Below, in pieces: positions 17,673 to 46,609 of a stretch of DNA of 64,000 nucleotides (positions are counted from its first letter, which is position 1; the number at the start of each line of letters is the position of its first letter). The translations under genes and the position numbers were made by a program. The stretch is taken from NCBI GenBank assembly GCA_963932905.1, contig CAWVRN010000009.1, positions 32,001-96,000 of the forward strand, written 5' to 3'. The notes beneath the pieces are model-generated. The model was not told the DNA's origin. It saw only the letters and a list, made by a program, of their open reading frames with translations, and made no database searches. This DNA is from an uncultured Bdellovibrio sp. GTDB lineage: Bacteria; Bdellovibrionota; Bdellovibrionia; Bdellovibrionales; Bdellovibrionaceae.

Positions 17673-17911
17673 TTTTTTGATTTTTGAGGGCTACCTTCTT
17701 TTAAAAACTTAGGTCCTTGTTAGTGCGTGGGGACTTCCTTTTGATGGAATTTTTTTTAAGGTATATGAAAAAGCCTCGGCAGTCCTCGCCGGCGCTGAAC
17801 GCCTGTCTGCGGAACTCATTTTTTCATATACCTTAAAAAAAATTCCATCAAAAGGAAGTCCGAGCTTGAATTGGCGTTTTTAAAAGAAGGTAGCCCTCAA
17901 AAATCAAAAAA
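17673..17911. repeat. Nested double-hairpin element, copy A
   Basis: Outer arms 17673-17708 / 17876-17911 (36/36 complementary); inner arms 17731-17772 / 17820-17861 (42/42); 47-nt core 17773-17819. Confidence 0.95.
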
Positions 17912-18033
17912 AACATCCACACCGGGGGCGCCTAACCGTTGCAATGTGGTTTTCTTTTGAGACTTCGTAAACGGAAAGCAGAACGGTAACGTCGAGCGGA
18001 GGCGATCAGCCTCACAAGTCATCGATTTAGAGC

Positions 18034-18411
18034 TTAAACAGACTCTGTCTGAATCGTGACGTGACTCGTGATTAATTTATGAATAGGACACTTATCCGCA
18101 ATTTCCATCAATCGTGTTTTGTCTTCAGCACTCAAAGTACCGACTAAATGAACTTTGCGAGACAAAATAGAATCCTTACCTTCGGAAACCGTGTGCACTT
18201 CAACTTGCACATCTTCCAATGCCATGTTCTTGCGTTTAGCATACATCTTTAATGTGATCGCTGTGCAGGCAGCCAGTGCTGTTTCTAAAACTTCATGTGG
18301 ATTCATGGCTTCGTCATTGCCTCCGTTGGCAATGCTCGTGTCAGCCAGAATGGAGTGGGTACGAACAGTGGATTTAACGACTAAATTGTGGACGCCTTTA
18401 AGTTGAATCAT
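18034..18411 (-). CDS. OsmC/Ohr family protein (YhfA-like)
   Basis: GGNDEAMNPHE..ALAACTAIT..MYA and ADKCPIHK, with both conserved Cys. Confidence 0.92.
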   Translation of the reverse strand: MIQLKGVHNLVVKSTVRTHSILADTSIANGGNDEAMNPHEVLETALAACTAITLKMYAKRKNMALEDVQVEVHTVSEGKDSILSRKVHLVGTLSAEDKTRLMEIADKCPIHKLITSHVTIQTESV

Positions 18412-18455
18412 TTCTATACCTTGATTTATCTTCTAAAAAAAATCAATATGAATAG

Positions 18456-19289
18456 GTGAGAGCAGAGATAATTTTAGTCGCCTCGGCATTTTTTCATTCA
18501 TCTTGGAATTTTATTTTCAAACGCCTGAATCCCAAGCATTCGGTATTATTACTTGTCGTAACTACGGCGACGTTGACCTCTATTTGTGTCGCGCCCTTCA
18601 CGGGTGGATTAAAAATTGGATCTACTTTGGGGCTTGCATTCACAGTCACCGCGGGATTATTTGAGGCTGGTTATTTCCATTCCTTGAGTCGCACCTATGA
18701 AACAGCCCCGTTTGGAATTTCCTATTCCATCATGAGGGGTGGGGCGATGTTGCTTGTTGCTGTAATTTCAGTTTTATTTCTGAAAGAGCCACTTTCGGGA
18801 CTAAAGCTGGTCGGGATGTTGCTTCTGGTGCTGGGTATTTTTCTAACGCCGTCAAAAGATAAAGATACATTAAGTCGAGCGGGATTATTTTGGGCATTGA
18901 GCTGTTCGTTCTTTATTGCTGGCTATCATATTTTCTACGGCTTAGCGTTGGCGGAAGGGGTCAGCCAAGTCGGGTTATTTGTTCTTTCCATGCTGACGTC
19001 GGTTCCATTTCTGGCGCTGAAATCTCGAGCCGCGGCTTTAAAAGATATGAAGAAAATTGATCCTAAAAATTATCGCTGGATTATCTTTGCTGGGGTCTTG
19101 TCCGGTAGTTCGTTCATACTATTTCTATATGGTTTGAAAAATAGTTATGCGGGCGTGGCGATATCGCTGCGTAATACCTCGATATTATTTTCCCAGGGAT
19201 TTGCGTGGTGGCTGGGTGAGCGTTTGACCAAAGCGCAATGGCTGGGTGTTAGCGCTATCTTTATCGGTGCGTTGCTGATCGGTCAGTAA
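18456..19289 (+). CDS. EamA/DMT family transporter
   Basis: About 10 TM; HSSWN, SYSIMRG, FLKE, LRNTSI, LGE motifs. Confidence 0.88.
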   Translation: MRAEIILVASAFFHSSWNFIFKRLNPKHSVLLLVVTTATLTSICVAPFTGGLKIGSTLGLAFTVTAGLFEAGYFHSLSRTYETAPFGISYSIMRGGAMLLVAVISVLFLKEPLSGLKLVGMLLLVLGIFLTPSKDKDTLSRAGLFWALSCSFFIAGYHIFYGLALAEGVSQVGLFVLSMLTSVPFLALKSRAAALKDMKKIDPKNYRWIIFAGVLSGSSFILFLYGLKNSYAGVAISLRNTSILFSQGFAWWLGERLTKAQWLGVSAIFIGALLIGQ

Positions 19290-19457
19290 AAAAGTATCGA
19301 CGCTGCTAAAAATCGATGACTTTTTCGCAGATTCATTGCCAATAAGAGGCCATGAAAATCGCGCCATTGTTGGTGAGTCCGGTTTCAATATGATTTTTAA
19401 TCTTCTTCAATTTCAGTTGAAGGCATTTTTAAAGGACTATCATCTCAATGAAAAAAA

Positions 19458-19955
19458 TTAACGTCGTAGACCAGACGATCGTGCGGCGACTTTCGATGTG
19501 GCGATTCCAATTTGCTCGCTACCAATTCGACCCGAACACGCACCTGTTGGAAATCCTTTAATCATTTCAGGTGTGTCATAACGACTGCACTCAAATACCA
19601 AACCATTCGTTGCATGAGTTAATTTAAATTGTGACACGATATAATCGCGTTCCGGTGATGGCGGCAGGACCCAGTACATGCTAACGACAGCGTTCCAGCC
19701 ATTTTGAGTCAACGTCATCGATTTCACCGTCGATGTACCCGGCTGCGTCGGGTGCGGCAGTTCAATTTCAACAGCCCATGGCGATCCAAATGCTTGTGGC
19801 AAAGGGCAGTTTTTAGGTTCTAAACACACCGGACGTTTCCATAAATTAATTTGACCCACAAATTTCTCAGCCGAAAACGAAGATAGGGGAAAGGCAGCAA
19901 TAAAAGTAAAAAATAACGATAATATCCAGCGGCGGTTGATATTCTTGTGTTGCAT
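19458..19955 (-). CDS. Secreted hypothetical protein
   Basis: Signal peptide preceded by RR, two Cys pairs. Confidence 0.65.
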   Translation of the reverse strand: MQHKNINRRWILSLFFTFIAAFPLSSFSAEKFVGQINLWKRPVCLEPKNCPLPQAFGSPWAVEIELPHPTQPGTSTVKSMTLTQNGWNAVVSMYWVLPPSPERDYIVSQFKLTHATNGLVFECSRYDTPEMIKGFPTGACSGRIGSEQIGIATSKVAARSSGLRR

Positions 19956-19983
19956 GAGAATCCTAACGAGTTATGCTTTTTTT

Positions 19984-20646
19984 ATGCGTATATCTATCTT
20001 TTTAATTTCGATTTTTCTACTAAAAACAACAGCCTTCGCCGTCCATATCGGTTGTGTAACGATTTACGAGCGATCTTTATGCGAAACGGAACAAACATTT
20101 CAGTATAAATCAGAAGCGCTAAGCTGGGAAATGCCTAAAGAAGAATTTAAAAATAAATTGGTGGCTATGTTAGATAAAGCGCAGCCTGGACACGGGGCAC
20201 GTGTGGGTAACGTGTTCTTGTGGGTCAACGATTTTAATTCACAAAGTGCGATGCGCGTTCAATTTTGGTCGAATGAGCGAAGTTTTATTGTCGATGTACC
20301 GCTGGACATTAATAATTTAGATAAGGAAGAAAGTTTCACGGTTCGTGCGGCGGGACTTGTGCCGTATCCCGTGGATTTTGGTTATACGGTGGGTGAAGTG
20401 ATCATTTCATGTGTGGATGATTGCGGACAGCAACACAAAGACTGGTTAGCCAATGCTGGATTTGCCGAGGTTCAATTGTTGCTTCCAAAAATGTATTTGG
20501 TGACTGTACCGAAATTCACCGAAGCTAAAACGGTTGAAAATTTAAAAACTAAATCTGATTTTAACCGCTTGTTTACATCGTTAGAATTATCCCCTGTATT
20601 AGAAGGTAATGGATCTAGAGAAATGGCGTTTTCGATCTTCTTTTGA
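19984..20646 (+). CDS. Secreted hypothetical protein
   Basis: Signal peptide MRISIFLISIFLLKTTAFA; exact start uncertain. Confidence 0.65.
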   Translation: MRISIFLISIFLLKTTAFAVHIGCVTIYERSLCETEQTFQYKSEALSWEMPKEEFKNKLVAMLDKAQPGHGARVGNVFLWVNDFNSQSAMRVQFWSNERSFIVDVPLDINNLDKEESFTVRAAGLVPYPVDFGYTVGEVIISCVDDCGQQHKDWLANAGFAEVQLLLPKMYLVTVPKFTEAKTVENLKTKSDFNRLFTSLELSPVLEGNGSREMAFSIFF

Positions 20647-20686
20647 TCTATTGACCTTTCTATAGCTGTCAATTATTTTTCTGATC

Positions 20687-22240
20687 ATGAAAAACGATCA
20701 ATCATCCGAATCAAATAAATTATGGTACCGCGCTCTACGTCACGTAGAAGCGGCAGGAAATGCACTTCCGCATCCCGCTCTTCTTTTTTTATATTTAACG
20801 GGATTTGTGCTGCTGTTGTCGGGATTTGTAACGGCGATCGATATGCAAGCAGTTCATCCCGTCAGTAAAGAAACTTTGCTTCCAGTGAATTTACTTTCTG
20901 GTCATGGTCTACGGTATATCTTAACGGACATGGTGAAAAATTTTACGTCGTTTGCACCGCTCGGAACTGTTTTGGTCGCGATGCTTGGCTTTAGTTTAGC
21001 CGAAAAAAGTGGAATGCTGTCCGCACTTCTTCGCCTGCTGGTGCTAAATTCGCCTCGAAAAATGTTAGTCCCCATTATTCTAATGGCCGGGGTTTTATCA
21101 CACACCGGCGGAGACATTGGTTACATTCTGTTAATTCCACTCGCTGCGATGACATTTCATAGTGCGGGATTAAATCCACTCGCGGGTCTGGCGATTTGTT
21201 TTGCCGGTGTATCAGGGGGATTTGCCGCGAATTTACTATTAAGCACTGCAGATCCACTGTTATCCGGGATCTCGCAAGAAGCCGCACGCATTTTAGATAA
21301 ATCGTATATCGTAACACCGTTATCCAATTGGTTTTTTATGTCATCGTCATCATTTTTAATCGTCGGTGTAGGAACATTTATCGCGTATAAAATTACAATT
21401 CCCTTTTTAGGTGACTACCATGGTCCGGTAGAAAAAGCGCCATTAGAAAAATTGTCGACGGCAGAAAAACGCGGATTAAAAGCTGCGGGTATAGTGGCTT
21501 TGGTATTCTTTGCTTTTTTACTGGCGGGACTAGTTCCAGAAAATGGATACTTGCGCGAACCAAAGACTCCGGATCTATTTCATTCGTCAGCTTTGAAAGG
21601 TGTTGTGACATTGATCTTTATTTTAGGTTCAACGACGGGTTTAGCATTTGGTTTTAAAAGTGGAACGTTTACCAAGGTGGAAGACATCGTAAAATCTATG
21701 CAGGAAGCTATGGTTTCGATGGCGCCGTATCTGGTTTTGGTATTCTTTGCTTCGCAATTTATTTCTTTATTTAATTATTCGAATATTGGAATTATTTTAG
21801 CCGTTAAAGGGTCGGAAGTTTTAAAATCGTGGGAACTAGGGACTATACCTTTAATGCTAGGATTTGTTTTATTAACTGTATTCCTAGATCTCGTGATTGG
21901 TTCGGCATCGGCGAAATGGGCGTTGATGGCGCCGGTGTTTGTGCCAATGTTTATGCTGCTGGGAGTTTCGCCAGAATTGTCGCAGACGTCCTACAGAGTT
22001 GCTGATTCGGTTGTGAATATCATTTCGCCGTTGATGACTTATTTTCCAATGATCCTCGCATTTGCTCATAAATATGATTCAAATGCCAAGGTAGGGACAA
22101 TCATTGCGTTGATGTTGCCATATTCGATTGGCTTTTTGATCTTCTGGTCGTTAATGTTATTTGTTTGGATTACGTTTGGAATTCCAGTGGGACCTGGTGC
22201 AGCGCTGGAATATATGCTTCCTGAATCGCAAGCCAAGTAG
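20687..22240 (+). CDS. abgT: AbgT family transporter (p-aminobenzoyl-glutamate / MtrF-YdaH type)
   Basis: GNALPHP, NFTSFAPLG, AGVSGGFAAN, SASAKW, YRVADS, ISPL. Confidence 0.93.
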   Translation: MKNDQSSESNKLWYRALRHVEAAGNALPHPALLFLYLTGFVLLLSGFVTAIDMQAVHPVSKETLLPVNLLSGHGLRYILTDMVKNFTSFAPLGTVLVAMLGFSLAEKSGMLSALLRLLVLNSPRKMLVPIILMAGVLSHTGGDIGYILLIPLAAMTFHSAGLNPLAGLAICFAGVSGGFAANLLLSTADPLLSGISQEAARILDKSYIVTPLSNWFFMSSSSFLIVGVGTFIAYKITIPFLGDYHGPVEKAPLEKLSTAEKRGLKAAGIVALVFFAFLLAGLVPENGYLREPKTPDLFHSSALKGVVTLIFILGSTTGLAFGFKSGTFTKVEDIVKSMQEAMVSMAPYLVLVFFASQFISLFNYSNIGIILAVKGSEVLKSWELGTIPLMLGFVLLTVFLDLVIGSASAKWALMAPVFVPMFMLLGVSPELSQTSYRVADSVVNIISPLMTYFPMILAFAHKYDSNAKVGTIIALMLPYSIGFLIFWSLMLFVWITFGIPVGPGAALEYMLPESQAK

Positions 22241-22330
22241 TGTTGTAGGATTTACCGACCAGAATAACGACATCCAGAAAGGCCAGGTCTTTCGGTATAC
22301 TGCGGGACCCTAAAAGAACCCGGAGGCCCC

Positions 22331-23020
22331 ATGTCTGCTTTTAAAAACATCCTTGTGATGTCGGCATTAATTTTTTCTGTGAACGCATTTTCACAAATCA
22401 AAAATTTTCATGCATTATCAGGTCAAATTTTCCGTAGCGCGGCTCCTACAAAAGATTCAACGTTCTTGAAACAAACAGGATTTACTCACGTTTTAATTTT
22501 TAAAAACGAAGTAAAAGACGAGGTATCAAAAGAAATCGCCGATTTACAAAAGGCAGGAATTCCGGCAGCCAATATTTACCATGTTCCATTTAAATGGAAA
22601 GACATGGGACCAGTTGAAGAATCCTGCGTTCAAGTGGTTCAAGCATTGGACTACTTAGTAAAAATCGAAAAATCGCGTTCACATAAAATTTTATTTCACT
22701 GTACAGCGGGCGAAGACAGAACGGGCGCTTTAGCTGGTTTATATCGTATGCTATACAGCCGCTGGAATATCGATCGCGCTTTCGTAGATGAAATGTGTGC
22801 ACATGGTTATGAAGCGGGCGATAAAAGAAAACCACAACCGGTTGTGAACGAAGTTCGTGAAGAAGTAACACCGGTGTTTTTGGCTGTAGCCGGGTTAATA
22901 ATCGATGGAAAGATTTCGTTTAATAACTTAAACACGGGTGCGTGCCGTGCTGGTGGGCATAAATCAGCTACGTATACGAATCTTCTGGCTGCGCAGAAGA
23001 CTCGTTATACGTGCCGATAA
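22331..23020 (+). CDS. Secreted tyrosine/dual-specificity phosphatase
   Basis: CX5R motif HCTAGEDRTG; signal peptide. Confidence 0.9.
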   Translation: MSAFKNILVMSALIFSVNAFSQIKNFHALSGQIFRSAAPTKDSTFLKQTGFTHVLIFKNEVKDEVSKEIADLQKAGIPAANIYHVPFKWKDMGPVEESCVQVVQALDYLVKIEKSRSHKILFHCTAGEDRTGALAGLYRMLYSRWNIDRAFVDEMCAHGYEAGDKRKPQPVVNEVREEVTPVFLAVAGLIIDGKISFNNLNTGACRAGGHKSATYTNLLAAQKTRYTCR

Positions 23021-23033
23021 TCAGTTATAAGAA

Positions 23034-24509
23034 CTAGAACACTAAATCATTAGCAAACGAACGCATTTCTTGTGTTGTTGAATTGACATTGAAAATACGT
23101 CTTGGTGCGCTGACTTCTTTTTGATCGGCAACCCCTTGGATAGACGCTGCAATGGCAGCTGGTACCGTCATTGATTTAGATTTTTCTGAAGCCATGTAAG
23201 CGCGGTCTGCATTGACAACGCCCGAACTGATGACTTTAGTTTTTAACCAATCTTTTTTATCCACTGTGCCCATCAAAATTTCTTTCATTTGAGCCGGTGT
23301 CAAAGCTGGATTGATATCTTTCATTTTTGCCGCCACACCCGCTACATACGGAGCCGCCATCGAAGTTCCAGACATTGGTAACACCATTTTGTTATCTAAG
23401 CTGGGAACAGAACTCTTAATCGCAACACCTGGCGCCGCCACGTGGACCGTTTTTAAACCATAGTTAGAAAAACTTGCTAAAGACATAACGCCGTTCGAAG
23501 CCGCTACTGTGATACCGTTATCGATAGCAATATTCGCTGGGAACGTAGGGCGTTTATCATTGTCAGAACCATCGTTGCCGGCCGCGATAACAAATAAGGT
23601 TTTAGCTGCAGAACCTAACCATTTTCTTCCAAGAGGTTCGTACTGGGCATTCATACGAGTGACTTCCGCATCCAATTTCAAATTGTAGGGAGCCATCATT
23701 TGAACATTCACTGCGGCTACACATTTTTTGTAAGCGGCTTCGTCACTACCTTTAGGACATTGTTTAGCGGCTTCCGCTGCGATCGCATCCGCAGTCGGTG
23801 GAACTACTTTTTGCAATTGTAATGACATACCCGCTATAGCTGCTAGTTGTACACCCAAACTATAATTAGCCACATCGATTTGTTGTTCATTGATATAAGC
23901 GGCTGCTTTTTCAAATGTACCATTTGTAAGGACTGCTAGTAATTTGTAGGCTAAATCAAGGATACCTTTCTTTTGACCCGGAGCTGCTGCTAGTGGATTT
24001 ACGAAATTGAGTGGCGTATCTGGGAACACGCGGTTCGACATAATTCTAGCATCCGGAGAAACTGATGCGACAATGCCCGATACATGCGTGCTGTGTGCAT
24101 ACTGTCCAAAAAAATTCAATTCGGTGCTTAGTTTTTGCTTTTCAGCGGTTGAAAGACTTGTGATATTTTCTTTCCAAAATTTTTCATCATCTGCAGTTTG
24201 AGCTCCGCTTTGAATGCGTGATAAAACGTCCATGATTTTAAATACTTTTTCTGGCACGTCTGCTACGTGCTGTTTGAAGAAAACTTTGCCGTAATTATCC
24301 GCAAAGTTCCAACCATAGATATCATCCACTTTTCCATTGCGATCATCGTCGACACGATTACCGGCGATTTCTTTAGTGTTGATAAGCGCGCGGCCAGTTA
24401 ACCATTCGTGGGTAAAATCAGTACCTGAATCCGTTACGGCTACGCGAGCTGAAAATGCGTTAAGTCCAACAAGTAGTAATGAGAGTGTTAGTTTATTGCT
24501 TATTTTCAT
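23034..24509 (-). CDS. Secreted S8 subtilisin-like serine protease
   Basis: VAVTDSG (Asp), HSTHVSG (His), AAGNDG, SGTSMAAP (Ser); DDDRNGKVDD Ca-binding loop. Confidence 0.95.
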   Translation of the reverse strand: MKISNKLTLSLLLVGLNAFSARVAVTDSGTDFTHEWLTGRALINTKEIAGNRVDDDRNGKVDDIYGWNFADNYGKVFFKQHVADVPEKVFKIMDVLSRIQSGAQTADDEKFWKENITSLSTAEKQKLSTELNFFGQYAHSTHVSGIVASVSPDARIMSNRVFPDTPLNFVNPLAAAPGQKKGILDLAYKLLAVLTNGTFEKAAAYINEQQIDVANYSLGVQLAAIAGMSLQLQKVVPPTADAIAAEAAKQCPKGSDEAAYKKCVAAVNVQMMAPYNLKLDAEVTRMNAQYEPLGRKWLGSAAKTLFVIAAGNDGSDNDKRPTFPANIAIDNGITVAASNGVMSLASFSNYGLKTVHVAAPGVAIKSSVPSLDNKMVLPMSGTSMAAPYVAGVAAKMKDINPALTPAQMKEILMGTVDKKDWLKTKVISSGVVNADRAYMASEKSKSMTVPAAIAASIQGVADQKEVSAPRRIFNVNSTTQEMRSFANDLVF

Positions 24510-24517
24510 ATGATCTC

Positions 24518-26245
24518 CTAGTTGATTCCTAATAATGATTTATTAGCAGCGATCAACGCGTTTTCAAAATTTAGTGTTTTAGGCATAAATGGATTTAAGT
24601 TTTGAATGTACATCCAGTTAAGCATGCTTTGAGCTTCCACAGTCGCTGTGCCAGCCATTTTGTTTTTGTAAAGCGTATTTTGTAAGTACGCTTCGTCCAC
24701 AACACCAGCGCGCATGAATTTTTTCAATGAGCTGTTAAGCTGGTAAGTGACCGATCTGTTAAGAGGTAAACCAACTACACGCAAAGCCACTGATAATAAC
24801 CAAGTGCCACCACGAACTACAGATACTTCGTAAGGACGTTTGTATCTATGGATTAGGGGAGCTCCCATATTTTTAAACGCCAAATTCTGCTCACTGATCA
24901 ATGAATACAAGCCGTCTTTCACGCCATTTCTATAACAAACAGCAAAGTAGTCATTAACGATTTCTGTTTTGCAGCCTTTTTCTAGAACTAAACGCGAATG
25001 AGTTTTATCCATTAAAACGTCACGTTGTTTATCTAAAGAGTAGCGAACTGATTTGCCGGCTTTCTCGAAGGCTTGCCAGTCAAACTGGGTGCCTTGAGCG
25101 ACCGACATAATGTATGAACTCATCATGTCGCTTTTTTGTCCGTACAAAATATTTAAAGCGCGAGTTTCAAGAAAAGGCAAATCAACAGCACCGACCTGGT
25201 ATGATTTGATATTTTTCAATGTTTGTTCCAAACGATTTGTTTGGTATTCGTACATTACGTCGATTTGTTCAAAGATGTCCTCAACAGCCACTTCAACGAT
25301 AGCGCCGATAGTGCGGTTTGGAATCAGACGGGGTAGTTGAACCAATACGCTGCTTAAAATGCTGCGGAATAATTTTTCAACCATGCCTTTATATTGGGTT
25401 TGGAAATTTACAATTTCAACAGGACCCATCAAAGGTAAGAAATCGCCATCAATAGCAACATCATAAACTTTGTTCAGATCATTCCAGTTAAATTTCACGG
25501 ATTGCAAAACTTTTTGCGGCTGATTCAACACTTGCAAAAAGTACTGTTGAATTTGACTTGATTTTTCTGCTGACAAAGAAGTATCGGCCTCTAAGCTTTG
25601 AATGACATCATTCAATTGGGCTTTAGTTGCCGCCGGTAATTCAAGCGTCGTGTTTGTCTCTAAGTCGGCCAAAGAAAATGAAACAGGTAACCCAACATCT
25701 GTCGATGTCGTCTGTGATCCTGGGACTGCTTTTGGTTTATTTTTAAATTTCAATGTTGAAATGAAACTTGTTCTAGCGGCCATGCGAGCATCAAAACGCG
25801 CGCTGTAGTCGCTGTTTCGAGCTTGAATTGCATTCCAGTCACCATCCAGCGCATTGATGAAATCTTTAGATGCCATTTGTCTGACAGGCATTTGAAACAT
25901 CGAAACAGCTTTTACAACTGCTTTTAAATTTGGAAATGACAAATCGTAGATACGGCAGGGAGCGCCTTGAGCATCGTAGGTCAGTATATATTTATCAGCG
26001 AATGGAACTTTTTTAGCATCCACACATTTTGGCTGACGTGTTTGGCCTTTCTTTAAAAAACTTTGCAGATGTGCCAGTGTTGGCTTAGGCGCTATGTTGA
26101 TTTGCGCTTGTGTTTTTGTTTTCACAGTGCTCATCACACGTTGTTCTAGCTCAAGATCATCTGCCGACAATTGTGTCTGGGCCAACGTTTGGCTTGTGCT
26201 CATCACGCCAGCGATGAATAGTAAAATCCATTTTATTCGAACCAT
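24518..26245 (-). CDS. Large secreted hypothetical protein, likely co-transcribed with the S8 protease
   Basis: Signal peptide from ATG 26245 (GGGGGA RBS); 8-bp gap to the protease gene. Confidence 0.8.
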   Translation of the reverse strand: MVRIKWILLFIAGVMSTSQTLAQTQLSADDLELEQRVMSTVKTKTQAQINIAPKPTLAHLQSFLKKGQTRQPKCVDAKKVPFADKYILTYDAQGAPCRIYDLSFPNLKAVVKAVSMFQMPVRQMASKDFINALDGDWNAIQARNSDYSARFDARMAARTSFISTLKFKNKPKAVPGSQTTSTDVGLPVSFSLADLETNTTLELPAATKAQLNDVIQSLEADTSLSAEKSSQIQQYFLQVLNQPQKVLQSVKFNWNDLNKVYDVAIDGDFLPLMGPVEIVNFQTQYKGMVEKLFRSILSSVLVQLPRLIPNRTIGAIVEVAVEDIFEQIDVMYEYQTNRLEQTLKNIKSYQVGAVDLPFLETRALNILYGQKSDMMSSYIMSVAQGTQFDWQAFEKAGKSVRYSLDKQRDVLMDKTHSRLVLEKGCKTEIVNDYFAVCYRNGVKDGLYSLISEQNLAFKNMGAPLIHRYKRPYEVSVVRGGTWLLSVALRVVGLPLNRSVTYQLNSSLKKFMRAGVVDEAYLQNTLYKNKMAGTATVEAQSMLNWMYIQNLNPFMPKTLNFENALIAANKSLLGIN

Positions 26246-26609
26246 AACTTCCCCCCTTGGAAGATAAAAATAACATGTGAAAAGTGTCATCCAGGACTGC
26301 CAAAATCCCAAGCATTTTAATGGTTTGGCACGAGGTATCGCACTATAACGAGCGCTGATATGAACTATAAGTAAATATTGGAAAATGGTCGAAAAAGGCA
26401 CTCAGGACGTATGTATTGCTTCTACTGTGAAATGATTTCGTAAGGAGAATGCTCATCTTAAAAAATCTGTACAGGAAAGCCGTCCTCGGCGAGAGCTCGT
26501 GACAGAAAGTTACATTAAAAAGGAAGTCTATGCAGAGGGTCCCAATTATTGGCGCAGCGAAAGCAAAACCAGCCAATGCAGCAAGTGAAGTTTGCACACG
26601 GAAGGCGTT

Positions 26610-31425: not shown

Positions 31426-31429
31426 TTTT

Positions 31430-37247: not shown

Positions 37248-37253
37248 CCCTTA

Positions 37254-38504: not shown

Positions 38505-38506
38505 AG

Positions 38507-38878: not shown

Positions 38879-41800
38879 TTTCTACCTCCCCGCGAGTTTA
38901 GTCGTGATTCTAAGTAAGCAACCATTGGGCCGCGTCCTAGAGCCTTTTGAAGTGATTTCAATTTCTCTATGTCATTGAAATTAAAAGGATCTTCCACAAT
39001 GCTCTTTTGCAGTTGATTGGCCTCGTTCGCCACTTTGTGTCGCTCACGAGTAAAGTTTATAAATGGATTCTCTTTCTGACCGCTTTGTTCAGCGGCTTTC
39101 TTTAATTTTTCAATTTCAGCCGATGCTAAACGCGAACCTGGCTTAGATGATTCTTCTGCTAAATCGAATAGATCTTTGAATACGGCTTGTTTAGTCGCCA
39201 CATCCCACATCTCAGCCACTTTTTCTTTAACAGTGATGGCTTGGGTGATGTACGGCTTAACTTGAAGCTGAACTTGTTCTTGATAGAATTTCTTTTGAGC
39301 CGCATCTAACTGCTTAGGTGCTGGCAACGCTAGGATGTCTTGAACTAGCTTAGAATTCTCGTGGTACACTTGAGCTAACATAATTAACTGCAATGAAGTA
39401 TCTTTAGCTTTGATGGCCGCCTGTGAACGTTTCTCTAACTGTTTGATTAGCTTGATACGTTCAACCAAGTTCTTTTGAATTACACGGTCAGATCGTCCTG
39501 AAAGGGGAGTTGAAGCCAGTTTCTTTTGCAATTGTTCAAAAGATTTAATTTCCATTGAACGAGCTAGAATTTGAGATTCAAATGTATCTTTCGACGATTT
39601 GTTCGCAAGGACAGTGCGGGCGATACCCATGTCCGCTGATTTTTCGTATGTGATCACACCAGCCGCCGCAAACAATTGCGGATTGCCTTTTAAAACACGA
39701 CTGTATTTAGAGAACAATTTTTTAGGCTCGCTGCTGAAATGAATCAACTGGTAAGCCGCGTACTGATTTTTTTCTTGGTCTTTTGAAACCGTCATAAATT
39801 TCAAATACTCTGGCGTTGGATCTTGGTGAGCCAATTCCATTAACAATGCAATTTTGAAATGGTGTTCGCCGATTTGAGATTTCTTAGGAGTAACTTGTTT
39901 TAACAACCGTAATGCACCTTGGAAATCCATACGCATTTCAGCGACCCAAGCGGCTTGATCCAGCGCCCAGTTTTTCTCATCCAGAGATAAACCGTCTAAT
40001 CCTAAGTATTGTTCAGATGATTTAGCTACCATGTCTAAGTTTTTCAAACGTAGTGCGATCGCTAATTTGTTTTTAATCAATGTGCGTTTTTCACCAGCCG
40101 GCCAGCTAGAGTACGCCACTTTATCTAACTTAGTTAGTTGTGATGTTAACTGTTCTTTAGTTGAAACTGTGCTGTTGATGATCTTAGCGGCTTGGTTAAG
40201 GATCGATTTTCTCCATAGACCTAAGAAGTAAGCCGCACGTGGTTTAAACGTTTGAGAGAAAAGTAGAGAATCTTCTTCGATCTGTGCTTCGTTTTTCAAG
40301 ATCACAGATGAATCTAAGCAAAGCTCTGATGATTTCTCGCGAATGCTTGCCGGGGCTTTAGCATCTACCGCTAGTTCACGGAAAAGATCAGCCGCTTGTA
40401 CGTAATCTTCATTTTCATAAAAGATATGACCAATTTGGTATTTGATTTCATCGCGTTTTGGACCTTTAGGATTTAACTCCAGGTACAAACGGAATGATGA
40501 TAACTGCATCGACGCATCTTCAGATAACTCAGCGGCTTCAATGGCGCCTAATAAAGATCCCTCGAACATACGAGCAAAGCGAGCTTCCGAGCGATCCATT
40601 TTTGCAAATAGATGTCCCGCTTTGCTGAATGCAGTGAACGCTTCTTGGTACATTTTGCGTTTTAATGAGGAATGTCCTGTCCAGTAGCTCATTTCAGCGT
40701 CATCAAATGCAGCTGTGTATTTGCCGAACCCAATAATTAACTCGGTGGTGGGTGCCCGCTCTTCGGCTTTACCCCAGTCAGTTAGAATTTTCTTAAGTCC
40801 TTGCTGACCTAAGGTACACTCATCGCCCGCTTTTTTACAGGCAGGACCTTTCAGTAACGCAATCGAGCGATCGATTTCAGTCAAAAGCTTAGCTTTGTGA
40901 CCAAGATCGTACTGAATACGAGTGATTTGAATTTGACCCTCTAGCTGACTAGCAAAATCTACTTCTTGTTTACCGATGATGGCCCATACTAACAGAGCGC
41001 TTTCTTTTTTAGCTGTGCGATCTAATTCAGTCGCTAAGTAAACTAAGTTTTTCTGACGAGCTGAATCTGGGCTTAGTGTCACAAGAGTCTGTACATCTGA
41101 TTCAACGATATTGTTTCTAGCCATGAATGTCGCTAGATCGCGAGATACTTCTTCTTGGAAGCTGGTGTCGACAACCATGGTTTTATCTGTTTTTGATTTC
41201 TTCAAAAACAGAGATTTGTTTTTTAATAAAGTAATAAGCTGTACTTGAGCTTCTTTAGTTTTGCCTAAGTTGTATTGGCACCAAGCATCGCGATATAGCG
41301 CGTAGCCTTTAGATGGATTCTCTTTAATTTTTAAAGAGTCGCGAAATAGTTTTGAGGACTTATCAAATTCGCCTTTGTAAAACAGTATGTCGGCCCATTG
41401 GATTTGAGCCACAGCCACTGTTTCTTTTTTATTTTGAGCGGCATTTTTAACGATGCCCGCGTAAATTTTTACGGCGTCATCTTGGTTTTGCATTAATAAA
41501 TGCAAATGCGCCGTTTGTAAAAGAACACGGCCTTTTTCTTGAGATTTTAATGATGGCAGAACTTGTGTGTAGATTTTTACGGCTTTTGTTCTGTCCGTTG
41601 CTATTTGATCTTTATAAAGCTGATCGCCTTTGCCTTCTTTTTCTAAAGACCATAAGCGAGCACGCTCAGAATACAAGTCCGCTAAACGTAATGCTAGCTG
41701 AGACTGCTTGTACATAGTGTCGTTATCGCGAATTGATAAAATCGACTCTAGTTTTTGGATTAATGAATCATGTGTCGAAAGATCCAGCTTCTCTGCTGCA

Positions 41801-41898
41801 TTTACTAAAGGAGCGATAACTAAATGAGAGGCTAGTAGCGATGTGATCGCTACGAATCTCATTGTGTTGATAAATTTAGTATAAGAAGCTTGTATCAT
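38875..41898 (-). CDS. Large TPR protein, GltD/AgmU-like
   Basis: Signal peptide, LRLADLYSERAR, multiple TPRs, PAPKQL..Y near the C-terminus. Confidence 0.8.
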   Translation of the reverse strand: MIQASYTKFINTMRFVAITSLLASHLVIAPLVNAAEKLDLSTHDSLIQKLESILSIRDNDTMYKQSQLALRLADLYSERARLWSLEKEGKGDQLYKDQIATDRTKAVKIYTQVLPSLKSQEKGRVLLQTAHLHLLMQNQDDAVKIYAGIVKNAAQNKKETVAVAQIQWADILFYKGEFDKSSKLFRDSLKIKENPSKGYALYRDAWCQYNLGKTKEAQVQLITLLKNKSLFLKKSKTDKTMVVDTSFQEEVSRDLATFMARNNIVESDVQTLVTLSPDSARQKNLVYLATELDRTAKKESALLVWAIIGKQEVDFASQLEGQIQITRIQYDLGHKAKLLTEIDRSIALLKGPACKKAGDECTLGQQGLKKILTDWGKAEERAPTTELIIGFGKYTAAFDDAEMSYWTGHSSLKRKMYQEAFTAFSKAGHLFAKMDRSEARFARMFEGSLLGAIEAAELSEDASMQLSSFRLYLELNPKGPKRDEIKYQIGHIFYENEDYVQAADLFRELAVDAKAPASIREKSSELCLDSSVILKNEAQIEEDSLLFSQTFKPRAAYFLGLWRKSILNQAAKIINSTVSTKEQLTSQLTKLDKVAYSSWPAGEKRTLIKNKLAIALRLKNLDMVAKSSEQYLGLDGLSLDEKNWALDQAAWVAEMRMDFQGALRLLKQVTPKKSQIGEHHFKIALLMELAHQDPTPEYLKFMTVSKDQEKNQYAAYQLIHFSSEPKKLFSKYSRVLKGNPQLFAAAGVITYEKSADMGIARTVLANKSSKDTFESQILARSMEIKSFEQLQKKLASTPLSGRSDRVIQKNLVERIKLIKQLEKRSQAAIKAKDTSLQLIMLAQVYHENSKLVQDILALPAPKQLDAAQKKFYQEQVQLQVKPYITQAITVKEKVAEMWDVATKQAVFKDLFDLAEESSKPGSRLASAEIEKLKKAAEQSGQKENPFINFTRERHKVANEANQLQKSIVEDPFNFNDIEKLKSLQKALGRGPMVAYLESRLNSRGGRN

Positions 41899-41906
41899 AA
41901 TTCTTC

Positions 41907-42404
41907 CTACTTGTTTCCTGCGTTGATGGCGTAGTTACCTGGAAGTACGGCAAATGCATACTTCTCGAAACCAGCAACACCACCGGCTCTTAAGATCAAA
42001 CTAATTTTGTCGTAATCGGCATCTTTGTCCGCTTGGATGATCAGAGAATTTTTTTCTTCCGTTTTGCTGTCAATTAAAACTTTAACGATAGTTTCAGATG
42101 TTGTTGGCTTGTCTTCGACAAAAATGTCGTTACCTTCCATGCGAACAACAACACCGGCGTTCATAATTTCAGTCAGAGTCGCCGTCGGCAGAGTTGTGTT
42201 TTTACCAACCGTTAAGTTTTGTAATTGGCCATTCATGTTTGAAAGTAAGAAAATAACCAAGATACAAAAAGCATCGATCAACGTCGTTAAGTTCATCGCA
42301 AACAATAGGCTCTTGCCTTTGGATTTAACTCCGGCGGCACGCACGCGCTTTTGAATCAGCAGCGGGCTATTTTTAATTTGAGTAGCTAAAATACCTTGTT
42401 TCAT
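41907..42404 (-). CDS. ExbD/TolR family gliding motor subunit (AglS-like)
   Basis: NLTTLIDAFCILVIFLL (conserved TM Asp), IIQADK. Confidence 0.88.
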   Translation of the reverse strand: MKQGILATQIKNSPLLIQKRVRAAGVKSKGKSLLFAMNLTTLIDAFCILVIFLLSNMNGQLQNLTVGKNTTLPTATLTEIMNAGVVVRMEGNDIFVEDKPTTSETIVKVLIDSKTEEKNSLIIQADKDADYDKISLILRAGGVAGFEKYAFAVLPGNYAINAGNK

Positions 42405-42448
42405 CGAATACGTCCTAGTTAGAGTCTGTAGCTAATTTTCTAAAGTGC

Positions 42449-42904
42449 TTAAATCGGTGAAAGACCAACGTCTTTGATGCCGTTCTGTTTTAGTAAATCC
42501 ATTAAACGAATAACTTGATCATACTTAGTCGTCTTAGTTGGCAGAACATGGGCGTTCTCGATTTTTTGAGAGGTAGTAGCAAGAAGATAACTTTTTGCTT
42601 TCATCCAATCGATTTGCCCATCTTTTGCCGCTAGCGTATTTGATTTATCCGCCGCTTTTGGTTTTTTGATTGTCACCGTGATATTGTTTTTCTCGTCGAT
42701 AGAGACCCAAAGGCTAGCGCGTGGGTCTGTTTCATCCAGGCTTTGTCCACCGATCGCTTGTTTGGTTTCTAGTGATCGGACTTCAACCCAAACCACTGTC
42801 ATCAACAAGAAACAAATACAGACAGAAAGAATATCGAAAACGGGAAGCAAATTAAGCTCAACGTTTAAATCTTTTTTTCCACCTGATCCAGAAGCTAATC
42901 CCAT
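42449..42904 (-). CDS. ExbD/TolR family gliding motor subunit (AglQ-like)
   Basis: ELNLLPVFDILSVCICFLL, YDQVIRLMD. Confidence 0.88.
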   Translation of the reverse strand: MGLASGSGGKKDLNVELNLLPVFDILSVCICFLLMTVVWVEVRSLETKQAIGGQSLDETDPRASLWVSIDEKNNITVTIKKPKAADKSNTLAAKDGQIDWMKAKSYLLATTSQKIENAHVLPTKTTKYDQVIRLMDLLKQNGIKDVGLSPI

Positions 42905-42945
42905 AACAACCTCACGTTCCTAAATATGATCTGTTTTAACTCGTA

Positions 42946-43626
42946 CTACTCTTGGCTTGCTTTTGATTTCTTTTGAACCGGCTCGTAACTGTAAGTTAAC
43001 CAGTTGTAGACCATCAATGCTGTTTGATTTACGTCTTCAGAAACTGAGTTAGCGCGATTTTGAAGAACTGCGAACATCGCAAGGGCCGGGATCGCAACTA
43101 ATAAACCGTACGCTGTTGCGTACATTGCCATCGAGATACCTTGTGATAACAACGCTGCTTTTTCCGCTGGGTTAACGTTAGCTACCGCAGCGAAAGAGTC
43201 GATAAGACCGATGATTGTACCTAATAGACCAGCTAATGTGCCGATGTTACCGATAGCGGCTAAGAAACCAGTGCGTTTTTCAACGGCTGAGGCTTCAGCT
43301 AATAATACTTCATCCATTTTAGATTGGATTTCTTCACTACCACCGCGAGCTTGCGCGGCTTGTGTTCCAGCTACGATAACTTTACCGATGGCTGAATCTT
43401 TTTGTGAAAGCTTTTGCGCTTTCGCTAGTACTGTTTCAAGACGACCTTTTTTAATGTCTTCTTCAAACGTCTTTGCCACCTTTTTGTTGTCTAAAGAGCG
43501 CGACACATAAAGTGCGTAAACTCTTTCGATGATGATCGCTAGAGAGAAAATCTGTCCAACGAAAATGATCCACATAACAAAGCCACCATGGCCGAATGCG
43601 TGAATGATATTTGTAAAAAATGCCAT
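42946..43626 (-). CDS. MotA/TolQ/ExbB proton channel (AglR-like)
   Basis: IIIERV, NIGTLAGLLGTIIGLI, GISMAMYATAYGL; start ATG 43626 with GAGG RBS. Confidence 0.93.
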   Translation of the reverse strand: MAFFTNIIHAFGHGGFVMWIIFVGQIFSLAIIIERVYALYVSRSLDNKKVAKTFEEDIKKGRLETVLAKAQKLSQKDSAIGKVIVAGTQAAQARGGSEEIQSKMDEVLLAEASAVEKRTGFLAAIGNIGTLAGLLGTIIGLIDSFAAVANVNPAEKAALLSQGISMAMYATAYGLLVAIPALAMFAVLQNRANSVSEDVNQTALMVYNWLTYSYEPVQKKSKASQE

Positions 43627-43682
43627 AACTACCTCTTTTTTCATGTTTTTACAGGTTAGCACCTGGTTCGGGAGAGGTAGTG

Positions 43683-43699
43683 AGCAACGACTAGGCCGA
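43683..43699 (-). promoter_or_regulatory. Putative sigma54 promoter of the gliding operon
   Basis: Minus strand TTCGGCCTAGTCGTTGCT, i.e. GG-N10-GC, about 57 bp upstream of the first ATG. Confidence 0.5.
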
Positions 43700-43831
43700 A
43701 ACCTCTACTGCAATCTAAACAGGGTAGAGGTCAAATTTTCTTAAATGAAAAGATTTTGGACACTCGATAATGACAATTGCGGTCCGCACCGAAACAAAAA
43801 CGGGCCCTGTTATTTTCTGAACAGGGAGAAA

Positions 43832-46201
43832 TTACATATCGTATCGACCAACGCTTAGATGCGATTCAACCTGTTTACGGATCGCATTTACATCTAACGT
43901 CGATAGCTTATCATTAGCTTTTGACGGCAGAACTAAAGAATCCTTATTCAATTTGAACTTGATCACTGAGTTTGGGTCCGTACATTTCATATCTGTCGCC
44001 GTTAATTCGCAGGTACGCAGCGTTTGTGACGTTTGGTTTTCAATTGAGTATTTGAACGGGAAGATAGGGACTAAATGCTTAGGGATGCCCACTGTATGAC
44101 GTAGCTTGCTTTCAAGGACGCGGCTCCATGATTCATTGGAAAATGCGATGGTTACATTCTGTTTTGCAATTAGTTGAAGTGAATCACCGTTGACGAATGT
44201 AAACTCAAGAGGAAAACTCTCTTGGCCTTCGATAATTGTAAGAGTACCGACATTGTTGGCCTTCAGATTCAAATCAAATACGAAGTTTACATTTTCAATT
44301 GGCTCTTCGCTTAGAGGCATACGGCTAGTGAACGGCTCTTTCCCATCGACGCCAACCGTAGATTGGATTTCACCCGCGATTTGTTTCAGTGAATACGTAA
44401 CGATACCGCCAGAGGTTTGCGACCTGTTGATTGCGCCTGTTAATTTAGTATTTAAGAATTTAAATTCAGACGCTAATCCATAATAACGGATAAGAATTTC
44501 TTTTAATTCGTCTTGGTATGTCGAAGCAGTTACTACGTTATAGAAATCAAGAACGGCGCCTGATTTAGGGTAGTTGGCTTTCACTTTTTCATTGAGCGTT
44601 TTATGAAGAGTCGCATTAGTTTCTGCCGTCGCCGAAATTTTACATTGAGTCAGCAAAATATTTTTAAGCACGGTTAATTGATATGGGCTGCTGATGTCTG
44701 AGGTTTTTTCCTTAGAAAGTTTGATTAATGTGTCGCTAGTTTCATTGATACATTTTTCAAACGATGGAAGATCTTTCAGTTCAATAGGCGCAGTTGTTGG
44801 CTGAACAGTCGCAGACGCTGTTTTATCTTTAGGAATCGGAGCTGCTGACGCTGCCTGCGCTACAGGTTTAACCGCAGCTTTATTCGAATCTTTTGGTTTG
44901 CCATAGGCGCTGTAAGCTTGACGGCGAGTTTTCAGGTTTTCATTTTTAGCTTCCGTTTCAGCGAAGAATTTGATTTCCGCTGCAGAATCGGGGAACGATT
45001 TAGTCGCGACGTCCACCACGGTTTGAGTCATGAATAATTCAACCGTATTCTCTTTAATACTCGAACGACCACACATCGCGGCTGCGGCTAATTTTAGTTC
45101 CAGTAATTCATGCGGTGTAGCCGCTTTCGCTTTTGCGGATTTCATACCGCCAAGACCCTTGTTGACAAGTTCTGTGAAGCATCCTTTGAATGTGGTGTAG
45201 ACTTCAGATTCTTTTTTGTCTTTCTTTTTATCGTCATTGGCCCCAGTAACAGCTGGTTTCGCAGCCGGCGCCACGGTGTTAACAACGGGCGCAGAGGCGA
45301 CGGGAGTTCCTGTAGCTACTTTGTTTGTTGTAACAGTAGGAGCAGCTGCTGCCTTGTCTGTGGCTTTCGGAGCTGCAGAGGAAGCTGCTTTATCTGCCGG
45401 TTTAACAGCCACGGCAGCTGGAGTCGTAGCAACCACCGCCGGTGTTGGCTGAAGTTGAGGTGTTGCGATCGGTTGAACGGACGGTGCCGCGCTTGTTTGG
45501 TTTGGCGCTGCCGCCAATGCCGCTGCTTCCGCAGCGACTTGATCATAAAGTTTAGCACGCTCGGACTCAGAAGCTTTTTCACCTTCAATACCCATGAAGG
45601 TATCAACGATTTCATCGACATCTGAAAATTTACTTAATGTGTACTCTGCGATTTTCTTGTTAATCGAAGCTTCAGCTTCATCTGCTTTTGCAGCCGGCTT
45701 TGGACAGTCCTTTAATATAGCTAATTTAGTTTCAAATAGTTTCTTAGCCGCAATAGTTTTCGTGTCTTTATCGCGTTCTTTAGAAATAGCGGAAGAAATT
45801 TTCGGACTGATGCACTCTTCAAATAGTTCCAGTTCGGTTTTTTTGGTGTTTGATTGAGTGATACTAACACCTGGCTGAGTCACCGTAGCCGTTGAGCCAC
45901 CTCTAGATGAAGTACCTGCCGCCGAACTGTCGGACGAAGCCGCTGGATTTCCTTTCGCTTCATCAGCGGGCGTCGGAGTCGAAACTGGTGCCGCACCCGA
46001 AGTCTCACCGCCAGTAGCCCCTGGTTTAGGATCTTCTTTAATAGGCCCAGTGACTGGAGGCGTATCTTTCTTGGCATCTTTTGCTTCCACTTTTTCAGCT
46101 GGTTTAGCTTTCGCATCCTTGTTTGTGTTCTTCTTCGTACAACCCGATGCCAAAGTCAGACAACTAATAGATAAAATTAGTAGTTTATATCCTGGTTTCA
46201 T
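43832..46201 (-). CDS. Large lipoprotein with three C-x35-C helical repeats and Ala/Pro/Thr linkers
   Basis: Lipobox ASGC; AAGGAG RBS before ATG 46201; repeats described in findings. Confidence 0.85.
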   Translation of the reverse strand: MKPGYKLLILSISCLTLASGCTKKNTNKDAKAKPAEKVEAKDAKKDTPPVTGPIKEDPKPGATGGETSGAAPVSTPTPADEAKGNPAASSDSSAAGTSSRGGSTATVTQPGVSITQSNTKKTELELFEECISPKISSAISKERDKDTKTIAAKKLFETKLAILKDCPKPAAKADEAEASINKKIAEYTLSKFSDVDEIVDTFMGIEGEKASESERAKLYDQVAAEAAALAAAPNQTSAAPSVQPIATPQLQPTPAVVATTPAAVAVKPADKAASSAAPKATDKAAAAPTVTTNKVATGTPVASAPVVNTVAPAAKPAVTGANDDKKKDKKESEVYTTFKGCFTELVNKGLGGMKSAKAKAATPHELLELKLAAAAMCGRSSIKENTVELFMTQTVVDVATKSFPDSAAEIKFFAETEAKNENLKTRRQAYSAYGKPKDSNKAAVKPVAQAASAAPIPKDKTASATVQPTTAPIELKDLPSFEKCINETSDTLIKLSKEKTSDISSPYQLTVLKNILLTQCKISATAETNATLHKTLNEKVKANYPKSGAVLDFYNVVTASTYQDELKEILIRYYGLASEFKFLNTKLTGAINRSQTSGGIVTYSLKQIAGEIQSTVGVDGKEPFTSRMPLSEEPIENVNFVFDLNLKANNVGTLTIIEGQESFPLEFTFVNGDSLQLIAKQNVTIAFSNESWSRVLESKLRHTVGIPKHLVPIFPFKYSIENQTSQTLRTCELTATDMKCTDPNSVIKFKLNKDSLVLPSKANDKLSTLDVNAIRKQVESHLSVGRYDM

Positions 46202-46376
46202 AGCCATCTCCTTAGGAAGGGTCTTTTCATCCAAGAGAGGTTAGTTCAATTTCCATGGCACAAATTGAGACTTCATCGCGGATATAGAGGGTTTGGGAAC
46301 GGTTTCGGGGGACGTACCTAATGGGTGATTACGGTCGTCTAATTTTAAGACAGTGGGCGGCCGGGTGCGGATGAAA

Positions 46377-46609
46377 TTTTTTTTGAGTTTGGCCCTCGCA
46401 TTGGTAGCTTTGGATCGGGGTGGTGCGAGGGTCTTCCTTTTGCGGAATTTCGTTTTAAAGGTATATGGAAAAGCCTCGGCAATCCTCGCCGTGCGCTTTA
46501 CGCCGGCTGCGGAACTCATTTTTCCATATACCTTTAAAACGAAATTCCGCAAAAGGAAGACCGAGCTTGAATTGAAAGCTGCCAATGCGAGGGATAAACT
46601 CAAAAAAAA
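46377..46609. repeat. Nested double-hairpin element, copy B
   Basis: Outer arms 46377-46411 / 46575-46609 (32 WC, 2 G-T, 1 mismatch); inner arms 46430-46472 / 46520-46562 (43/43); 47-nt core 46473-46519. Confidence 0.95.

Follow-up and report, generated by a model that had tools for sequence, protein, structure and literature searches.

A noncoding fold-back element family of one Bdellovibrio clade whose variable stems stay paired

RESULTS

Two fold-back elements lie between genes in the window

We analyzed a 64,000-nucleotide (nt) stretch of the genome of an uncultured Bdellovibrio sp. (GenBank assembly GCA_963932905.1, contig CAWVRN010000009.1, positions 32,001 to 96,000), referred to here as the window, which contains two copies of a noncoding element that folds back on itself. 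Copy A (17673-17911) lies between an ECF sigma-factor gene (17097-17654, minus strand) and an OsmC-like gene (18034-18411, minus strand). Copy B (46377-46609) lies between an 800-amino-acid gene without a Pfam match (43832-46234, minus strand) and a gene for a beta-propeller-domain protein (46670-50062, minus strand). An initial annotation of the window had described each copy as two nested stems around a 47-nt core, and we confirmed this architecture at these positions from sequence and fold. The predicted folding energies were -133.9 kcal/mol for copy A and -144.2 kcal/mol for copy B, compared with -58 and -68 kcal/mol for shuffled sequences (z of about -16), and none of 200 shuffles matched the real elements.

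All parts of copy A are read on the plus strand. The head motif, AAAATCCCGG (17663-17672; family consensus AAAAATCCCCCG), immediately precedes the T-run at the 5' start of the outer stem. The left outer arm (36 nt, 17673-17708), whose sequence differs between copies, pairs perfectly with the right outer arm (36 nt, 17876-17911). A semiconserved left internal loop of 22 nt (17709-17730) runs into the conserved base of the inner stem, GGGG(A)(T/C)CTTCC. The left inner arm (42 nt, 17731-17772) pairs perfectly with the right inner arm (42 nt, 17820-17861); the middle of this arm varies among copies, and the partner arm mirrors the changes. The core enclosed by the inner stem (47 nt, 17773-17819) matches the pattern that we call type I and belongs to a subtype with a CTGAA mini-hairpin. 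Together with the inner-stem base, the right internal loop, GAGCTTGAATTGGC (17862-17875), forms the most conserved signature of the scaffold. The tail (about 17912-17958) consists of the end of the A-run, CATCCACACC, a 12-nt stretch resembling a mini-insert described below, GGGGGCGCCTAA (17924-17935), and a T-rich run. Copy A has no mismatch in any column of its inner or outer arms.

Copy B has the same hairpin parts on the plus strand: a left outer arm (35 nt, 46377-46411), a left internal loop (46412-46429, placed by sequence and fold), a left inner arm (43 nt, 46430-46472), a type I core of the subtype with a TTT mini-hairpin (46473-46519, by core-pattern match), a right inner arm (43 nt, 46520-46562), a right internal loop, GAGCTTGAATTG (46563-46574, by sequence and scaffold signature), and a right outer arm (35 nt, 46575-46609). 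Its inner stem is perfectly paired, as the initial annotation had it; where three imperfections had been claimed, we counted three G.T pairs and one other mismatch, all in the outer stem. The two copies had also been described as having the same orientation. This is true of their cores, but comparison with the tail of copy A places the tail motif of copy B on the left, as a reverse complement (46355-46376, minus strand), so the interior of copy B is inverted relative to its head and tail. On the other side, the head-side flank (46610-46640, minus strand) contains a GC-rich hairpin found in a terminator scan (46611-46632). From its sequence, the segment from 46611 to 46640 on the minus strand is a likely intrinsic terminator for the beta-propeller gene. 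The A-run that closes copy B would be read as the U-tract of that terminator on the minus strand, and thus the element and the likely terminator share bases.

The elements form a polar family with two unrelated core types

The initial annotation knew two copies. In the genome that contains the window (G000; 58 contigs, 4.55 Mb), we found 11 assembled type I copies, a twelfth split over two contig ends (C18 and C37), one truncated left-half remnant (C19:63.8k), and two copies with a different, type II core. (Other G numbers denote related genomes, C numbers denote contigs, and L numbers denote loci, including metagenome contigs.) The type I core pattern matches 11 sites in G000, and its two subtypes differ by a compensated mini-hairpin.

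In an alignment of 26 full-length copies from five genomes, conserved sequence continued past the hairpin into the head and the tail. Thus, the unit is not the hairpin of about 235 bp alone, as first proposed; head and tail (17663-17672 and about 17912-17958 in copy A) extend it to about 290 bp. This unit is polar and comprises a head, an outer stem, two unlike internal loops, an inner stem, a core, and a tail. The head is conserved in all 26 copies, with an ortholog divergence of only 9%, and the tail has the consensus TACCCACGCCGCAGCC followed by about seven T's, after the closing A-run. The best-conserved signature is the inner-stem base, GGAAGACC, with the right loop in the form that it has in copy B, and many copies carry a bulged A at the inner-stem base. 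The outer arms, which had been called mostly unrelated between copies, proved to be homologous but diverged in the same alignment.

The two type II copies in G000 (C5:126745-127040 and C8:28313-28702) share the head, outer stem, loops, inner-stem base, and tail of type I. Their core is longer and unrelated in sequence, with a common piece, ACAATACCGCATCC, and covarying mini-stems of its own. Type II cores are common in G003, G006, G008, and G009, and the metagenome contig L190 carries a further core variant. We considered a small open reading frame in the type I core (minus-strand ATG) and rejected it; by eye, the core subtypes change the peptide completely yet keep the mini-hairpin.

A mini-insert of about 12 nt, GGG(G/A)GCGCCTAG, often with a 2-nt flanking duplication, recurs within elements at four places, namely, the tail, the type I core, the type II core, and the right loop; it is seen in either orientation and at times as tandem copies. 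We observed it at 17924-17935 in the window, at C19:40960, C29:15131-15156, C19:65291, and C23:13970 in G000, and in L140, L141, L186, L188, and L191; it is also present at a few sites outside elements. G000 contains five exact copies and nine matches with at most one mismatch, where 4.5 are expected by chance. The mini-insert may represent a footprint, a micro-repeat, or an insertion that was templated.

The family is restricted to one Bdellovibrio clade

We found the family in 5 of the 10 genomes of one Bdellovibrio genus. Type I cores numbered 11 in G000, 5 in G003, and 11 in G006, and diverged copies were present in G008 and G009; with 0 or 1 mismatches, this core had no match in the other 172 genomes of the taxonomic family. 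The scaffold signature, AAGACCGAGCTTGAATTG, searched with up to two mismatches, gave 14, 11, 15, 6, and 5 matches in G000, G003, G006, G008, and G009, respectively, and the reversed pattern that served as its control gave none in these genomes. Elsewhere among the 384 genomes of the order, the signature gave 0 to 4 matches per genome, near the control, and single two-mismatch matches in other genera were at the control level. The matches that we fetched from G133 (three of four) and G007 (one) do not fold (-26 to -37 kcal/mol).

A search of one genome per species of bacteria and archaea gave repeated matches to the core pattern only in records with Bdellovibrio in their titles. About ten single matches were scattered over unrelated phyla (folds unexamined), which is the number that we estimate a 20-mer would give by chance. 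Viral contigs contained no match to the core pattern. When we searched metagenomes with a scaffold pattern that ignores the core, we obtained 23 matches, 19 of which are real elements, all of about 290 bp.

Several copies in G006 and G000 stand at contig ends, which would be expected of repeats that break assemblies. The flanks of one copy shared by G003 (C70) and G006 (C31) map to the ends of two G000 contigs (the start of C32 and the end of C20), and a further, unassembled G000 copy may lie in this gap.

Stem arms change together, with few wobble intermediates and no strand bias

To count arm pairing, we used 19 of the 26 full-length copies (five lack core anchors, and two were set aside as misparsed). 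Their stems contain 1,190 Watson-Crick pairs (97%) and 40 mismatches, comprising 17 G.T, 12 A.C, and 11 transversion mismatches. G.T and A.C mismatches did not differ in number (P = 0.46), and so wobble pairs are not tolerated in a strand-specific way.

The initial annotation had claimed that differences between the arms of copies A and B are mirrored in the partner arm. This held across the family, far beyond controls. In an alignment of 21 type I copies, 55 of the 82 consensus pairs show changes on both sides. Overall, 92.2% of cells pair, compared with 79.2% in shuffles, and the covariation score was 0.389, compared with 0.140 in shuffles (reached by 0 of 500) and 0.08 to 0.12 when partners were slid. 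Summed from the covariation table, the inner stem has 112 cells with changes in both partners and 9 with a change in only one. The aligned copies are kin, so these counts are not independent events; the scarcity of one-sided intermediates is still striking. Near-absent wobble intermediates and the lack of strand bias argue that the arms are copied from each other at the DNA level rather than kept paired by selection on RNA.

Selection on RNA is an alternative explanation. The elements would then be functional structured RNAs, acting within neighboring mRNAs (as a stabilizer in the 3' untranslated region or as a signal for processing or decay) or as precursors cut by a double-strand-specific RNase that releases the core. 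The conserved core and loops suit this explanation, as does a covarying mini-hairpin in both core types. The plus strand shows a conserved G.U pair atop the inner stem, and at one core position, again only on the plus strand, 12 copies have a G-C pair and 8 have G.U. In folding with RNA parameters, 14 of 21 copies were more stable as the plus strand (P = 0.014), a weak effect that the G000 copies drive, and the 21 copies are not independent; for the core by itself, the folding energies of the two strands did not differ. Many copies also begin right after a stop codon. However, the long stems are almost without wobble pairs (17 G.T in 1,230 arm positions) and show no strand bias (17 versus 12), and 9 one-sided against 112 double changes is unlike the usual path of RNA compensation. 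Orientation to neighboring genes is mixed, and three copies have flipped interiors, as described below.

Searches for RNA features gave little. We found no promoter-like site in or beside copy A and only one near copy B, at the chance level. The outer hairpin starts with a T-run and closes with an A-run, not a U-run, on both strands, and we therefore rejected it as an intrinsic terminator; terminator scans found only small internal hairpins, in near-chance numbers. The window contained no Rfam match at gathering thresholds, and relaxing the cutoff to an E value of 1 added only generic models of long-hairpin microRNA precursors, which scored 39 to 46 bits against thresholds of 100 to 249. ARAGORN found no tRNA or tmRNA in the window, which does not fit a tRNA-derived or tRNA-linked element. 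The initial annotation had offered a structured RNA, or single-stranded DNA read by a protein, as one of its explanations; this retains the conserved core and loops and the weak plus-strand folding advantage but gained no positive support. We consider a functional RNA unlikely.

Orthologous stems drift and stay paired

We defined six groups of same-locus copies in G000, G003, and G006 by their common flanks. We then compared divergence by compartment in the five of nine intended ortholog pairs that could be cut by anchors; four were skipped since head or tail anchors were not found. Divergence was 9% in the 5' coding flank, the head, and the inner-stem base, 11% in the right loop, 12% in the core, and 17% in the tail. 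It was 21% in the inner arms, 23 to 25% in the outer arms, and 36% in the noncoding 3' flank. Thus, the stems drift roughly like unconstrained DNA, at about twice the rate of the conserved parts, and yet stay paired; it is the unpaired parts that show constraint.

Between the members of the closest pair, G003_C70 and G006_C31, the 3' flank shows 3 differences in 143 positions, whereas one inner arm shows 6 in 36 and the other 6 in 38; among the arm differences is a 2-nt indel mirrored on both sides. Two close paralogs in G000 (C13:40.4k and the copy split over C18 and C37) show two mirrored outer-arm changes. Independent double changes are far too improbable at such divergence; an arm must have been copied from its partner, or both arms must have been replaced at once.

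Copies are gained, lost, exchanged in place, and flipped

The site of copy A is empty in G006 and G003. Positions from about 17656 to 18030 are missing there, the flanks are 79 to 82% identical, and these flanks lie 15 to 25 bp apart, compared with 388 bp in G000. At three further copies, in G008 and G009, the counterpart sites of G000 have no element, and presence/absence was thus seen at four loci in total. The 396-bp spacer that holds copy B has no alignable counterpart in G003 or G006. The head of copy A is about 45 nt upstream of the likely ribosome-binding site and ATG (near 17609, minus strand) of the ECF sigma-factor gene. This insertion of about 375 bp, which is missing in G003 and G006, must have displaced or replaced the promoter region of the ECF sigma-factor gene in the window species.

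Core subtype and arm similarity cut across orthology. For example, an inner arm of G006_C95 is nearer to that of a C19 copy in G000 (0.93) than to that of its own ortholog (0.83). One locus exists in three states: it carries a type I-like element in G009 (C82) and a type II element with different arms in the metagenome locus L199, and in G000 it has no element. G009_C82 and L199 share a left flank (91% over 531 nt) and a right flank (82% over 569 nt) that begins inside a locus-specific tail variant, and the interiors between these flanks differ. Here, one complete fold-back has replaced another, and the flanks and the locus-specific tail have remained in place. At a second locus, three sources have a type I element and L198 has a type II element, with only the left flank in common.

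The empty G000 counterpart of the three-state locus (C12:61530-61560) contains a GC-rich stretch that resembles the tail and mini-insert reversed (about 16 of 20 bases by eye). From its sequence, this stretch may be a leftover after loss of the fold-back. Stand-alone head or tail "docking sites" were not found in G000; its 15 other tail-like matches (up to two mismatches) are without the A-run/T-run context of the family and mostly fall within long open frames.

We took a census of polarity in 50 distinct scaffold copies. We found 38 with canonical polarity, 3 robust flips, and 1 doubtful call, and the rest were not assignable; an inverted interior is thus carried by about 7% of copies. In the flipped copies (copy B, which is locus L074; G000 C19:40.7k; and L190), the loops, inner hairpin, and core are inverted relative to the head and tail; copy B accordingly has its tail on the left and the reverse complement of the head on the right. 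Within the alignment, no copy has its core reversed with respect to the loops.

Two unrelated cores on one scaffold, together with the swap of a fold-back in place, suggest a cassette-like exchange mechanism without a described enzyme. In its full form, this proposal holds that the hairpin is a self-templating chassis for interchangeable structured cores, which are inserted, exchanged, or flipped between a fixed head and tail by an enzyme that reads the asymmetric loops and ends on folded single-stranded DNA. We regard this form as quite unlikely; if true, it would constitute a new mobilization system, distinct from RAYT/REPIN systems, miniature inverted-repeat transposable elements (MITEs), and integron cassettes.

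A further alternative is that the elements are domesticated host sites, that is, extruded hairpins or cruciforms whose loops are bound by a chromosomal protein in nucleoid organization, replication, or recombination. REP/BIME elements in E. coli, for instance, bind gyrase and IHF. Stem mismatches without strand bias, conserved unpaired parts, and retention at orthologous sites across three species are what such sites would show, and the core strand is the G-rich strand in 10 of the 14 G000 copies. However, the association with GC skew is not significant, the scaffold carries two unrelated cores, and sites are gained and lost. Moreover, genomes have only 5 to 15 copies and half of the genus has none, which makes an essential chromosomal role unlikely. 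We therefore consider host sites improbable.

With respect to genes, orientation is mixed. Judged from open reading frame positions, about 6 of the 11 G000 copies have their head just past the stop codon of a gene in the same orientation, and the remaining copies face the opposite way or sit upstream of genes. We also observed convergent pairs of elements, of type I or II, 400 to 700 bp apart between convergent genes, with each head beside the stop codon of the neighboring gene. There are four such pairs: G000 C29:14584-15405, G003 C143:40949-41920, L142 (G003 C62:14936-16068), and L194.

RAYT-like genes and reverse transcriptases do not track the element

The initial annotation had suggested mobilization by a HUH-Y1 or RAYT transposase and had proposed a check for clustering near such a gene or near a reverse transcriptase. 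We found two RAYT-like Y1 transposase genes in G000 (C12:65796-66434, plus strand, and the region of C5:25107-25307, minus strand), whose products of 212 and 207 amino acids have HUH-like and Y motifs. Both genes lie between inverted repeats of about 25 bp, a different one for each gene, and these repeats form families of 20 to 39 copies (20 exact) and 2 to 17 copies. The element profile had no match in the flanks of the RAYT-like genes, and no scaffold motif lay within 1.5 kb of eight Y1_Tnp loci in seven genomes. RAYT-like genes occur in most of the genus, including the element-free genomes G001, G004, and G007. We conclude that the G000 RAYT-like genes and their repeats are ordinary REP/RAYT systems, separate from the fold-back family, and the proposed mobilizer was not borne out. 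At the metagenome locus L189, one RAYT-associated REP occupies the position of the element tail.

We also rejected a link to reverse transcriptases. RVT_1 genes are present in 9 of the 10 genus genomes regardless of the element, and the single one in G000 is on another contig. A further candidate, the interrupted copy at C19:63.8k in G000, was rejected as an autonomous parent, as it is only a left-half remnant beside a flagellin-like gene. This remnant (C19:63802-63960) contains the head, left outer arm, left loop, left inner arm, and the start of core-like sequence, and it is followed by CTAG-rich noncoding DNA and the flagellin-like gene (64450-65283).

These results decide largely against REPIN-type repeats mobilized in trans by a RAYT-like Y1 transposase of the same genome. 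The likeness is real. RAYT-like genes of about 207 to 212 amino acids are at hand in G000 and most of the genus, and the element, like REPINs, is noncoding, intergenic, and dispersed, would form a long hairpin in single-stranded DNA, shows compensatory changes, and is mostly inherited vertically with rare movement. REPINs as described in PMC3116915 are symmetric, of about 100 bp, with a RAYT gene adjoining its REPs, are mostly inherited vertically and move rarely, and commonly show compensatory changes in the less conserved part of the hairpin. In contrast, the Bdellovibrio element is about 290 bp long, with two nested stems and alternative cores. A REPIN consists of two conserved inverted REPs around a variable spacer, whereas here asymmetric parts are conserved and stems vary, and the conserved parts are not two inverted copies of one REP. 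Given also that the genome's RAYT-like genes are flanked by other repeats, we consider this the most improbable of the explanations that we weighed.

DISCUSSION

We propose that the elements are a noncoding fold-back family of about 290 bp in one Bdellovibrio clade, likely selfish and occasionally mobile DNA, whose stems are probably kept complementary by copying between arms at the DNA level and by exchange between copies. We place the probability of this reading at roughly 55%. A nonautonomous mobile element with recopied arms was among the suggestions of the initial annotation, and it fits best with a family that is dispersed, intergenic, clade-restricted, variable in presence, and covarying, although not with the HUH-Y1/RAYT mobilizer that accompanied it.

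According to this model, a mutation in one arm would either be undone or be passed on to the partner arm as the newly made strand folds back at replication, by template switching. The same process, or recombination between arms, would occasionally invert the interior. Conversion, or an enzyme that recognizes the conserved head, tail, and loops, would exchange whole interiors among copies. Selection would act on the parts that are conserved, namely, the loops, the core, and the ends, most likely as recognition sites for whatever spreads or maintains the element. We infer the spreading agent and the role of the head, tail, loops, and cores from these patterns, and we favor recognition by a protein on folded single strands.

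Template switching between the arms of inverted repeats homogenizes the arms and inverts the spacer (PMC8604942), and hairpins with seemingly compensatory changes can arise and persist through it (PMC8794818). The family shows both arm homogenization, as multibase mirrored changes, and occasional spacer inversion, and a DNA-level reading is the best supported. The element also differs from the cases in that literature, which concern a mutational process at ordinary short repeats; here, nested arms of 35 to 43 bp belong to a multicopy family with conserved unpaired parts.

Several observations weigh against our proposal. The examples in PMC8604942 have arms of about 7 to 16 bp with short spacers, and the element arms, at 35 to 43 bp around 47 to 190 nt, are beyond that documented range. 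Comparison of filled and empty sites, through which the initial annotation had hoped to define exact ends and target duplications, confirmed presence/absence, but neither a clean target-site duplication nor an exact junction emerged in the four comparisons, where the intergenic flanks are too diverged. A direct repeat, GTTGCAA, flanks copy A only, but it overlaps the family tail and may be a coincidence. We found no autonomous parent or related full-length element encoding a transposase in G000, the 23 metagenome matches, or viral contigs, and no partner enzyme that tracks the element among the Y1 and RVT_1 genes checked. Many copies are at orthologous positions in three species, so movement is rare, and such long retention could mean a host function. 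Finally, the plus-strand folding advantage, the G-C/G.U core pair, the conserved core, loops, and ends with covarying mini-stems in the type II core, and the heads that follow stop codons, which would suit a role in the 3' untranslated region too, also count against the proposal.

The literature that we searched contains no description of such repeats in Bdellovibrio, and the statement in the initial annotation that this is no named family holds for Rfam and for that literature; ISfinder was outside the comparison. In its behavior, the family comes closest to REPINs and fold-back elements among known classes, yet it lacks defining features of each. In MITEs, the terminal inverted repeats are conserved from copy to copy, insertion has duplicated the target site, and a related full-length insertion sequence usually exists. 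Our element resembles MITEs and fold-back elements in being short, noncoding, multicopy, hairpin-forming, and variably present between relatives. However, its head is not an inverted version of its tail, its arms differ between copies, and we found no full-length relative; the four filled/empty comparisons, with most junctions too diverged, showed no clean target-site duplication.

ERIC (or IRU) sequences of enterobacteria are imperfect palindromic intergenic repeats of more than 100 bp, with low to moderate copy number, often at orthologous sites, and with variants that carry internal insertions; we know of no enzyme that mobilizes them. The Bdellovibrio element is likewise a large palindromic intergenic repeat of modest copy number, often at orthologous sites and with variants that carry internal inserts. 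Compared by description only, ERIC is a single palindrome with conserved sequence in hosts of a different phylum, whereas this element has two nested, nonconserved stems and interchangeable cores.

The attC sites of integrons, which are 57 to 141 bp long and lie in cassette arrays beside an integrase gene, are recognized as folded single strands, and their extrahelical bases matter. The element is similar in that structure is kept while stem sequence varies and in the bulged A of many copies. In contrast to attC sites, its copies are scattered across 10 contigs, where they lie between ordinary genes either alone or as convergent pairs. We saw no array and no linked integrase near the elements, although no search was aimed at integrases.

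To our knowledge, bacterial genomes hold few persistent noncoding repeat families, and we know of no account of how most of the large palindromic ones spread and survive. In the family described here, about 75 bp of stem per copy drifts near-neutrally yet stays almost perfectly Watson-Crick paired, wobble intermediates are nearly lacking, and interiors now and then are flipped, which makes it an unusually clean natural experiment. The pattern is the signature expected if template switching during replication, and not selection on RNA, yields "compensatory" evolution. Because the element passes covariation tests easily, it is also a warning for covariation-based RNA discovery. The family offers a tractable system for measuring arm-to-arm copying in vivo. 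For Bdellovibrio genomics, these elements break assemblies and sit in regulatory regions, as copy A does ahead of the ECF sigma-factor gene.

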